Below, piece by piece: positions 4,237-5,655 of a DNA stretch of 15,849 nucleotides. The notes beneath the pieces are model-generated. The model was not told the DNA's origin, searched no databases, and saw only the letters and a program-made list of their open reading frames with translations. The stretch's first letter is position 1; each line of letters opens with the position of its first letter. Origin of the DNA: Verrucomicrobiota bacterium (GTDB taxonomy: Bacteria; Verrucomicrobiota; Verrucomicrobiia; Chthoniobacterales; UBA6821); assembly GCA_008932965.1 (NCBI GenBank), contig WBXG01000038.1, positions 1 to 15,849 of the forward strand, written 5' to 3'. The translations under genes were made by a program, and so were the position numbers.

Positions 4237-5655
4237 TTATAAAGCACTCACATTTTCTGCCCGAATCGTTCCTATTGGAGACTTTTGTTGACGAATGCCT
4301 CGATCCTCGTGTGAAGTAACTCGGAATCCGGTGTCCATTTCAATTCTTTGACCCACTGGGAGAGAAACTAATGCAGCATGAGGCAAAGTATATTCTTCAA
4401 CCTGCTCAATGAATTCTTTGAGTGAGTCATAATGCCCAAAAAGCTTTTTCATCGATTCTTCTAAATCATTCACAGGAATCCTTTCTTTAAAAAAATCCTC
4501 CGCTGGATCTGGCATGATTTCATCAGATGAAATTTGACCCTGAGAGGTAGCAGCATCGTGAGCCTCCCTTTTTTTCAATTCCTCTACCTGCCCTAGAATC
4601 TCCTTTTTTGTTTGTTCAAAACGTTGACGGTCTTTGGGGTCTAAAAAATTCAGAGATTCTATTGTTTCAAAATTTTTAGCAATAGGGCTCTTGCTCTCTT
4701 GAAAATAAGCATCTAAAACGTGGTTCACACGCTTTTCTTCAATTCCAATGTGACGATTGACCTCGGGGATTTGAGCACAAGTTACAAGCATTTCTTGAAC
4801 TTGAGGATTGATAGGCTCCCCCTTGCTCGAAGAAAAAGAGGCTATATAATCTTTCAGGCTTACCCCTTCTTTTCTGGCTCCTATTCCTATCATGAGAGCT
4901 CCTGCTGCAATAGGAAGACCAGCTAAGGCAACAAGCCCTCCACCAGCGAGGCTCGCAGCAAGGGCCACTTTTGTGACTACTGCTGAACCCGTGAGAAGTT
5001 TAATAGAAACTAAAGAAGAAAAAGTACCAGCTGTTAATGTGGCTGTAGGAACAGTTGATCCAACAATAAAACCAGCATCAGATTTATCAATACCCGCTGC
5101 CTTACTCAATCCTTCTGTGGTTTCCTCCCCAACTCCATAGAGTGCCTGTAATAGAGTTGGAGTCGGTTCTGCTTCTTCGTCATCACTTTCATGATCGAAA
5201 TCTACTACTTCCGCAGGTACGGATGTTTGATCATCTGTAACTAGACGAGGATCACTTATTGTCTGACCCGATTTTATTTCTTGAATCTTGCTTTGAGACC
5301 AAGCCTTAAGAGAAACTTTTTGCTTCAATACTTCTCTTATCTGTCCAATAGTTAATGGAGTTTGATCGTCATTAGGAAGTACGATGCTATTGAGTTCTTC
5401 GGGCTTGCCTCGCAATGTTCCCGGTGTTTCTAAAATGGATGAGAGAAAATGTCTTTTAGTGCTTTTGATTGAAATACTATCAGGAGGTGTTTCAGCTTCT
5501 GTAACGAGTCGATACTCCTGAGGAAGTCCCGCTGCATCTCTTGTGACTAAGACTCCCGTTGTCTCTGGTAGTTGACGTTTTTGAGCACTGTTCATGAATG
5601 CTTTATAGCCCGACAAGGAGGAGTAGTTATTACTTGGTGAAGAAATGTGATTCAT
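4237..5655 (-). CDS. Hypothetical membrane protein with central bilobed Gly/Ala-rich hydrophobic hairpin (Inc-like / Tir-like); candidate T3S substrate
   Basis: Long ORF; I prefer the start at ATG 5655 (MNHISSPSNNYSSLSGYKAF...) over the track start at 5706. The ~65-aa nearly uncharged segment AGFIVGSTVPTATLTAGTFSSLVSIKLLTGSAVVTKVALAASLAGGGLVALAGLPIAAGALMIGIGA (nt ~4876-5076) follows an acidic patch. The C-terminal region is charged and helical-looking. Confidence 0.8.
   Translation of the reverse strand: MNHISSPSNNYSSLSGYKAFMNSAQKRQLPETTGVLVTRDAAGLPQEYRLVTEAETPPDSISIKSTKRHFLSSILETPGTLRGKPEELNSIVLPNDDQTPLTIGQIREVLKQKVSLKAWSQSKIQEIKSGQTISDPRLVTDDQTSVPAEVVDFDHESDDEEAEPTPTLLQALYGVGEETTEGLSKAAGIDKSDAGFIVGSTVPTATLTAGTFSSLVSIKLLTGSAVVTKVALAASLAGGGLVALAGLPIAAGALMIGIGARKEGVSLKDYIASFSSSKGEPINPQVQEMLVTCAQIPEVNRHIGIEEKRVNHVLDAYFQESKSPIAKNFETIESLNFLDPKDRQRFEQTKKEILGQVEELKKREAHDAATSQGQISSDEIMPDPAEDFFKERIPVNDLEESMKKLFGHYDSLKEFIEQVEEYTLPHAALVSLPVGQRIEMDTGFRVTSHEDRGIRQQKSPIGTIRAENVSAL

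Follow-up and report, generated by a model that had tools for sequence, protein, structure and literature searches.

A putative type III secretion substrate with a Gly/Ala-rich hydrophobic core in a freshwater lineage of Chthoniobacterales

The window analyzed here is a complete 15,849-bp contig (WBXG01000038.1) that carries, on its minus strand, a gene for a 472-aa protein, hereafter the target (Table 1). The genes on one side of the target are housekeeping genes (sua5/tsaC, purE, aroK, gap, pgk, and tpiA), and the other side is a small island of chaperone and candidate effector genes. A 494-aa candidate effector is encoded 119 bp from the target, and 1,842 bp separate the target stop codon from the end of a gene for a type III secretion chaperone of the CesT type. 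The target itself consists of a polar N-terminus, an acidic tract, a long and almost uncharged hydrophobic stretch, and a charged C-terminal domain. With moderate confidence, belief and doubt being evenly balanced, we suggest that it is a lineage-specific substrate of a type III injectisome in freshwater Chthoniobacterales (Verrucomicrobiota), and that its hydrophobic stretch would form a hairpin in a host membrane.

The longest minus-strand open reading frame (ORF) here, 4237-5706, encodes 489 aa. In an alignment of the upstream DNA of five lineages, ATG 5655 is the sole start codon kept in all of them, and ATG 5706 is replaced in two (L011 and L015), both with in-frame stops upstream. On this conservation, the protein is taken to be 472 aa long. 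The NCBI annotation uses the equivalent start in two homologues from metagenome-assembled genomes (MAGs; 484 and 467 aa). Two numberings are in use, ORF residues counted from 5706 and protein residues counted from ATG 5655; the hydrophobic stretch spans 211-277 in the former and 194-260 in the latter, which is used below.

The hydrophobic stretch, AGFIVGSTVPTATLTAGTFSSLVSIKLLTGSAVVTKVALAASLAGGGLVALAGLPIAAGALMIGIGA, is 67 aa long (nt 4876-5076) and contains just two charged residues, K219 and K229. A preliminary description of this locus had pointed to an almost uncharged segment of about 65 aa with two lysines at ORF residues 211-277, and its strings and coordinates match the translation. It had also called the segment bilobed; of the two lobes, one is clearly hydrophobic. 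Lobe 2 (230-260) reaches a maximum 19-residue Kyte-Doolittle mean of 2.14, whereas lobe 1 (194-229), which holds both lysines, is weakly hydrophobic with 19-residue means of 1.0-1.6. Judged by these profiles, only lobe 2 appears clearly transmembrane-like, and it is likely to be a membrane-spanning or hairpin segment. The hydrophobic moment is low all along the stretch (0.02-0.15, and 0.03-0.14 in lobe 1), which makes it evenly apolar as opposed to amphipathic. AlphaFold places helices at 191-209, 217-237, and 242-256 with low confidence. A survey of every ORF of 80 aa or more in the window and in eight related loci found a 50-aa segment with at most two charges and a mean hydropathy of at least 1.0 only in the target and in ordinary polytopic transporters. 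In addition, the stretch is almost invariant across all homologues. It is not a chance feature.

Hydrophobicity was also measured by summing central-position Hessa values over 19 residues and taking the minimum sum, with no terms for length or position. This simplified scale was calibrated on real proteins, in small sets. The target has a minimum sum of +1.33 kcal/mol. On the same scale, the two segments of Tir from Escherichia coli Sakai (enterohemorrhagic E. coli, EHEC) score +0.94 and +1.48 kcal/mol, while Sakai EspZ, EspB, and EspD score +1.14, +1.32, and +2.27 kcal/mol, respectively. Membrane proteins score lower: in the window, three transporters and two pseudopilins lie at -1.6 to -4.0 kcal/mol, and in Sakai, five of the seven inner-membrane proteins lie at -0.5 to -4.9 kcal/mol. 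Soluble proteins have minimum sums of +5 to +12.7 in the window and +3 to +11 in Sakai. Hence, the target falls within the range of the EHEC secreted transmembrane substrates (+0.94 to +2.27), between the membrane proteins and the soluble proteins. The composition follows the same pattern: the Gly+Ala fraction is 0.41 both in the hydrophobic segments of the target and in those of the EHEC secreted proteins, relative to 0.15-0.18 in Sec-inserted membrane proteins of the window and of Sakai. The hydrophobic segments of the target also lack aromatic residues.

The transmembrane segments of type III and type IVB substrates have been described as occupying an intermediate range of hydrophobicity, the "hydrophobicity niche" (Krampen et al. 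2018, PMC6110835). Segments in this range evade targeting by the signal recognition particle (SRP) in the bacterium and still permit insertion in the host (PMC6110835). The core of the target matches proven type III transmembrane substrates quantitatively, in hydrophobicity and in Gly/Ala composition, and this match supports its assignment to that class. The combination of intermediate hydrophobicity with a Gly/Ala-rich segment is a signature that can flag candidates where homology yields nothing.

The same scale also bears on a different reading, in which the target would be a secreted soluble effector whose Gly/Ala-rich stretch is buried or of low complexity and does not span a membrane. All 19-residue windows of the target are positive on the simple sum, windows across lobe 1 with its two lysines exceed +5, and the soluble EscN gets down to +3.05. 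A run of 31 uncharged residues whose Kyte-Doolittle mean is 2.1, however, occurs in no soluble control. The composition matching proven secreted transmembrane segments and the near invariance of the stretch among homologues likewise argue against a soluble protein, which we regard as quite improbable.

The N-terminus is a second feature that is consistent with a secreted substrate. The first 25 residues include 13 S/T/N/P/Q and no D/E, and the earliest acidic residue after ATG 5655 is E31. There is no Sec-type signal, as the Kyte-Doolittle mean stays below 1.0 in every 19-residue window ahead of aa 194. Nine secreted proteins of the locus of enterocyte effacement average 11.3 polar residues in their first 25 positions, relative to 6.0 in 22 non-secreted controls, one of which reaches 12. 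Among 76 genes called in related Chthoniobacterales loci, the target N-terminus is in the top three for polarity. The six most polar N-termini of this set belong to orphans that adjoin CesT chaperones or lie within an injectisome locus, and the most polar N-termini include homologues of the target, of the 494-aa protein, and of a 153-aa protein of the same island. In composition, the target N-terminus thus resembles a type III secretion signal. The preliminary description was right on several points of this anatomy, namely the absence of acidic residues from the first 30 positions, the lack of a Sec signal peptide, an acidic patch ahead of the hydrophobic segment (DFDHESDDEEAEP, aa 152-164), and a CesT-type chaperone gene 1.8 kb away.

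A substrate requires an apparatus, and the related MAGs carry homologues of SctD in at least 36 protein clusters at 41-74% identity. Accession blocks, not a closed genome, suggest that SctD and a target homologue occur in the same MAG in two cases. The SctD protein MDH4469604.1 and the target homologue MDH4469824.1 (QE493_02485, gene ~497 of the MAG) are 220 accession numbers apart; SctD MCF7728907.1 and target homologue MCF7729465.1 (gene ~751 of the MAG by locus tag) are 558 numbers apart. The locus of the same SctD cluster (L009 1-9225, from Joint Genome Institute metagenome 3300027969) encodes SctU (Bac_export_2, 1.6e-107), a SctQ-like protein, SctW (HrpJ and TyeA fused), a tetratricopeptide repeat (TPR) protein, SctV (FHIPEP, 2.3e-226), and SctD. 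By its gene content, this locus is a non-flagellar type III secretion system. In another related locus, L003, the SctD gene lies 6 kb from that locus's chaperone gene and a sigma-54 activator gene adjoins sctD (16391-19282). Collectively, these data indicate an injectisome in the lineage, with injectisome genes in genomes that also have the target. Full-text literature searches returned no paper on an injectisome, effectors, or type III secretion of Chthoniobacterales.

The distribution of SctD also bears on whether the target could be a component of the translocon pore, analogous to SctE/SctB (YopB, EspD, CopB, and EspB). These proteins share with the target a central Gly/Ala-rich hydrophobic region between helical flanks and an intermediate hydrophobicity, which for the target equals that of EspB and is near that of EspD. 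Moreover, helical hairpins have been reported in the translocator AopB (review PMC9993115). Every injectisome, however, needs translocators, and the target, found in one cluster as opposed to at least 36 for SctD, is not conserved among related injectisome-bearing genomes. It has no Pfam match to the SseC, IpaB, EspB, or IpaC families. Nor is there a TPR (class II) chaperone gene near it; the TPR gene of the lineage is beside sctV in the apparatus locus. A pore component is therefore very unlikely.

If the target is an injectisome substrate, its parts suggest how it might work. The polar, acid-free N-terminus, possibly together with a chaperone-binding stretch in the first ~100 aa, would direct export through the injectisome. 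The hydrophobicity of aa ~212-260, the Gly/Ala-rich stretch whose turn is GGG 238-240, would be too weak for capture by SRP/Sec in the bacterium and strong enough for entry into a eukaryotic membrane as a helical hairpin once delivered. The helices of this hairpin would most plausibly be aa ~212-236 and 241-260, on either side of the GGG turn. The N-terminal region of ~190 aa, including the acidic tract, and the C-terminal domain of ~210 aa would then be left on the cytosolic side of the host membrane. Secretion, chaperone use, membrane insertion, topology, target membrane, and host are all parts of this model that we infer.

The two soluble regions say less about function. The C-terminal domain, which has no match in Pfam or the PDB, is presumed to be the effector domain. 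The preliminary description of this domain as charged is correct, and its helical character appears in AlphaFold2 models at low confidence only (pLDDT, the predicted local distance difference test score, 41 for the domain alone and 32 for the full-length target with a 5-sequence alignment). The acidic tract is length-polymorphic, since a 12-aa insertion in three homologues (P0001, P0005, and P0006) places VEFDHESDDEEA twice in tandem. By eye, and as speculation, its SDDEE core resembles a eukaryotic casein kinase 2 (CK2) or acidic-cluster motif. An FFAT-like (two phenylalanines in an acidic tract) reading of EDFFKE at aa 386-391 was likewise made by eye only; the second Phe is Leu in one lineage.

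Database searches describe the target as an orphan. Pfam and NCBIfam have no match to it at E <=0.1, and a sequence search of the PDB returned chance-level hits (best E = 0.35). A match to a circular bacteriocin in the PDB (E = 0.4) was dismissed as a product of Gly/Ala composition alone. Four clusters, 85-95% identical to the target, were recovered from 5.8 billion proteins by an indexed search. When 1.84 billion 50%-identity representatives were searched exhaustively with HMMER, no relative emerged beyond the target's own cluster. The named homologues are MAG proteins, from Verrucomicrobiae bacterium (QE493_02485) and Chthoniobacterales bacterium (K9M81_03755). One of 185,579 species-representative genomes, that of Chthoniobacterales bacterium Tobar2m-G38, carries the target, in identical synteny (tpiA-pgk-gap-aroK-purE-sua5-target). 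The record name of one source (L012) is freshwater metagenome. On this distribution, the target is an ORFan restricted to a freshwater Chthoniobacterales lineage. Metagenome contig scans seeded with the 494-aa neighbor, in search of an "empty site" that lacks the target, gave no relative.

The ratio of nonsynonymous to synonymous substitution rates (dN/dS) of the target is 0.31-0.43, and the target is therefore a real gene under relaxed purifying selection. For comparison, the ratio is 0.02-0.2 in the flanking housekeeping genes, 0.09 in the chaperone, and 0.17 in the 494-aa neighbor. Together, the orphan distribution and the raised dN/dS support effector-like evolution. As a separate observation, the synonymous divergence of the target (4237-5655) is mosaic relative to L001, L011, and L014: in the comparison with L001, the N-terminal third has a dS of 0.30 and the remainder one of 0.07, a pattern that is reversed relative to L011. 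The overall dS relative to L001, 0.15, is below that of the flanking housekeeping genes (0.31-1.05). The mosaic and the low dS suggest recombination or recent exchange of the target gene between strains.

The island beside the target has a core that is found elsewhere. Matches of the CesT-type chaperone in the PDB include ExsC and CesT. Its 80 homologues share 32-94% identity with it, more than 50% in every case but four; those with a named source are MAG proteins of Chthoniobacterales/Verrucomicrobia, and several are annotated as "type III secretion system chaperone". The 494-aa protein consists of two tandem modules of ~230 aa (internal BLASTP E = 2e-10), each with a motif like F-x-E-A-L-x-x-K-Y-G-x-x-I-A-x-F-A, which is the source of its SicP-binding and BspR matches. 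In L005, a 34%-identical homologue of the 494-aa protein is encoded next to, and divergently from, a 69%-identical chaperone. The target is absent from the chaperone loci L003, L005, L007, L017, and L019. Because the pair is kept in L005 and the target is missing from all five loci, the conserved unit is the chaperone with the 494-aa protein. The comparison of loci thus indicates that the target is a recent addition beside this unit. The preliminary description had implied that the target is the client of the CesT-type chaperone. This claim did not survive, as the conserved partner in L005 is the 494-aa protein with its SicP-binding-like motifs; that the target is a client of the chaperone is possible but unsupported.

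Several of these results weigh against a secreted hairpin. Lobe 1 is weakly hydrophobic and holds two lysines, and a true two-span hairpin is thus not established. The hydrophobicity match, obtained on a crude scale with small calibration sets, is support, not proof. The AlphaFold models of the target are uninformative. The target is co-oriented with sua5/tsaC, 160 bp downstream of it, and could share its transcription unit. The chaperone's conserved neighbor is the 494-aa protein, and every other chaperone locus examined is without the target. The inner-membrane proteins EscT (+0.61) and EscD (+1.62) also take intermediate values, such that the measure does not discriminate alone. The secreted host-membrane hairpin of the preliminary description stands on circumstantial evidence, namely the injectisome of the lineage, the hydrophobicity and Gly/Ala content of the core, and the composition of the N-terminus.

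These points can be taken together as a different account, in which the target is a resident bacterial protein. It would hold a weak hairpin in its own inner membrane, inserted by YidC or spontaneously, with its soluble domains in the cytoplasm, and its proximity to the chaperone would be a coincidence. The position directly downstream of sua5/tsaC on the same strand, the location outside the conserved chaperone/494-aa unit, the similar scores of two genuine inner-membrane proteins, and the inferred nature of secretion all fit such a protein. In the window, however, the sums of the two pseudopilins and of all three polytopic membrane proteins are -1.6 to -4.0 and their Gly+Ala fraction is 0.15, as compared with +1.33 and 0.41 in the target. 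Moreover, the acid-free N-terminus is among the most polar of the 76 genes, and an orphan distribution with raised dN/dS is atypical for housekeeping membrane proteins. We consider a resident protein rather unlikely.

Table 1. Coordinates of the target, its parts, and neighboring features in the window
Feature	Position	Strand	Description or evidence
Target gene	4237..5655	-	472 aa, begins MNHISSPSNN; ORF list and conserved start codon
Polar N-terminus, codons 1-30	5566..5655	-	Ser/Asn-rich, no acidic residue
Acidic tract DFDHESDDEEAEP, aa 152-164	5164..5202	-	Translation
Hydrophobic lobe 1, aa 194-229	4969..5076	-	Thr/Ser/Gly-rich, holds K219 and K229
Hydrophobic lobe 2, aa 230-260, VALAASLAGGGLVALAGLPIAAGALMIGIGA	4876..4968	-	Gly/Ala-rich core
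C-terminal domain, aa 261-472	4240..4875	-	Charged; mostly helical prediction at low confidence
Dispersed-repeat core	4192..4210	.	Inverted pair with 5684-5702, 17/19 positions complementary (I4)
Partial (core-only) repeat copy	5684..5702	.	29 nt upstream of ATG 5655
CesT-type (class I) type III secretion chaperone	1877..2395	-	PF05932, E = 3.8e-19
494-aa candidate effector	2633..4117	+	PF09119 SicP-binding, E = 1.8e-5; NCBIfam BspR match
153-aa fast-evolving orphan, downstream of chaperone	1327..1788	-	57% aa identity, dN/dS 0.72 relative to L001

Other features of the island concern its chaperone and its orphans (Table 1). The chaperone ends in a tail of ~45 aa (aa 128-172, window 1877-2014) that is rich in Pro/Ser/Thr/Gln, an unusual feature in a class I chaperone. 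For roughly half of the homologues, the alignment covers only 74-78% of the query, as would be consistent with a variable or missing tail. In L005, a single-module 289-aa paralogue adjoins the homologue of the 494-aa protein, and a Y1 transposase gene lies near the chaperone. The N-terminus of the 153-aa orphan has 11 polar residues in its first 25 positions, and this protein is a candidate further type III substrate. The far boundary of the island varies (window 1-1327 relative to L001 14695-15691): the window ends in overlapping type II secretion pseudopilin ORFs (GspI-like 6-491 and GspJ-like 442-1194), in place of which L001 and L002 have tsaB and tsaE, and the breakpoint adjoins the 153-aa orphan. 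Elsewhere in the window, a SulP/STAS transporter gene (12414-14141) lies between two ATP-binding cassette (ABC)-permease genes (11497-15074) in the same order as in L001; the stop of the first permease gene and the start of the transporter gene overlap.

A search for hairpin analogues near the chaperone homologues of L003, L005, L007, L017, and L019 found just one protein, which is not homologous to the target. This orphan, also of 494 aa, is encoded at L019 644-2128 (plus strand), 4.8 kb upstream of a 76%-identical chaperone, and includes a Gly/Ala-rich region of ~240 aa in which three segments are moderately hydrophobic (+0.76 to +2.4). This orphan could be a membrane-targeted effector analogous to the target, and its occurrence hints that Gly/Ala-rich orphans near chaperones recur in the clade. 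A YG-containing motif common to the 494-aa neighbor of the target and the L019 orphan (LTELYGASAVAILYP) was discarded as not significant (hhalign E = 0.17).

The target is bracketed by one full copy (4150-4215) and one core-only copy of a dispersed repeat, which together form a 19-nt inverted repeat. The repeat is ~60 nt long, with the consensus ...CATCAGCCTTCGCGGCCTCCTCGTCACGATCAGTATGAAATATCCGGGCTAGCC and a near-invariant core, TGAAATAT-CGG. It occurs in both orientations and is intergenic in nearly all copies checked; inverted pairs are frequent in gaps between divergent or convergent genes, and copies also lie within the injectisome locus. The window has four matches relative to 0.08 expected; the 16-mer matches at 563-578 and 7415-7430 are weaker (3 mismatches). 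Copies elsewhere are at 6327, 8166, 8331, 18357, and 18853 in L001 and at 16378 in L003, with further copies at 1984, 3849, and 9213 in L009 and at 220, 4220, 4382, 7608, and 7770 in L015. The repeat has no stable fold and no Rfam match, and it may be similar to repetitive extragenic palindromic (REP) sequences or bacterial interspersed mosaic elements (BIMEs). The 19-nt pair resembles transposon ends at first sight, but its members are copies of this dispersed intergenic repeat without a stable fold, and the pair is therefore not taken to mark the target gene as a mobile cassette. Rfam had no match within the window, and a promoter and terminator scan gave counts at chance level.

Comparison with known systems narrows the interpretation. 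The preliminary description had attributed to the target the architecture of Tir, which is similar in size (558 aa, relative to 472 in the target) and shares a central hydrophobic region with values in the same range (+0.94 and +1.48), a polar N-terminus, and a CesT-family gene nearby. A Tir-like translocated receptor would offer a bacterial adhesin a loop displayed on the host surface, and the nearby chaperone gene and the two hydrophobic lobes are what would recommend it. The anatomy contradicts this reading. The hydrophobic segments of Sakai Tir (233-256 and 365-383) are separated by an intimin-binding loop of ~110 aa, whereas the target lobes are contiguous and leave a loop of a few residues at most, with no room for a ligand-binding ectodomain. 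Neither the window nor L001 has an intimin-like gene, the tir-cesT-eae operon is absent, and the chaperone gene is 1.8 kb off, beyond a gene on the opposite strand. Moreover, the target has no Tir Pfam domain, and BLASTP against Sakai Tir finds nothing at E <=10. The Tir comparison was thus abandoned, and a Tir-like receptor is hardly credible.

EspZ, SseF, SseG, and SteD are two-span type III transmembrane effectors of enterobacteria (PMC9993115, PMC6110835), and in these proteins as in the inclusion-membrane (Inc) proteins the soluble regions face the cytosol (PMC9993115; PMC3048545). The target shares with the enterobacterial effectors an intermediate hydrophobicity (EspZ +1.14, target +1.33) and closely spaced segments rich in Gly/Ala/Thr. 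They depend on class I chaperones in the known cases, whereas the link of the target to a chaperone is unproven. No homology connects them to the target, whose soluble domains on both sides are far larger than those of EspZ.

Inc proteins are defined by a bilobed hydrophobic domain with two helices of 15-32 aa, a loop of <30 aa, and 40-60 aa overall (Dehoux et al. 2011, PMC3048545). The preliminary description had cited such a domain as the hallmark of chlamydial Inc proteins. Membership in the Inc family is not borne out, as the target comes from a bacterium of the Verrucomicrobiota (Chthoniobacterales) and not Chlamydiae that is not known to live in a vacuole, is itself not known to reach one, and has no sequence homology to any Inc in Pfam/NCBIfam or among the 1.84 billion representatives. 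Its domain is 67 aa long with two lysines, relative to 40-60 aa in Incs, the first lobe is marginally hydrophobic, and the domain lies in mid-protein behind an N-terminal region of 190 aa. The likeness to Incs such as IncA lies in one large hydrophobic domain with a short Gly-rich uncharged turn, a C-terminal domain that is soluble and probably helical, a polar N-terminus that lacks a Sec signal, a family-poor and fast-evolving sequence, and an origin in a bacterium of the Planctomycetes-Verrucomicrobia-Chlamydiae (PVC) superphylum with an injectisome.

One extension of this likeness is an Inc-like strategy outside Chlamydiae, in which planktonic freshwater Chthoniobacterales would, by means of a type III injectisome, plant hairpin effectors in the vacuole or plasma membrane of protists or algae. 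We regard this as improbable; if true, it would indicate an unrecognized host-associated, possibly intracellular, lifestyle in Verrucomicrobiota, and membrane-decorating effectors that arose independently, or are ancestral, within the PVC superphylum. The narrower prediction, if true, would provide, for a lineage of freshwater Verrucomicrobia, a type III effector that inserts into membranes, an undescribed interaction of common lake bacteria with eukaryotic hosts, and a concrete protein to localize in the search for a host. The present value of the target is that of a lead toward a host-interacting lifestyle in freshwater Verrucomicrobia, not that of a discovery. Considered beside the known systems, it is a putative new, homology-free candidate of a known functional class, the type III transmembrane effectors. 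The best reading by analogy is that the target would function like the hairpin proteins Inc, EspZ, and SseF while being a member of no such family.

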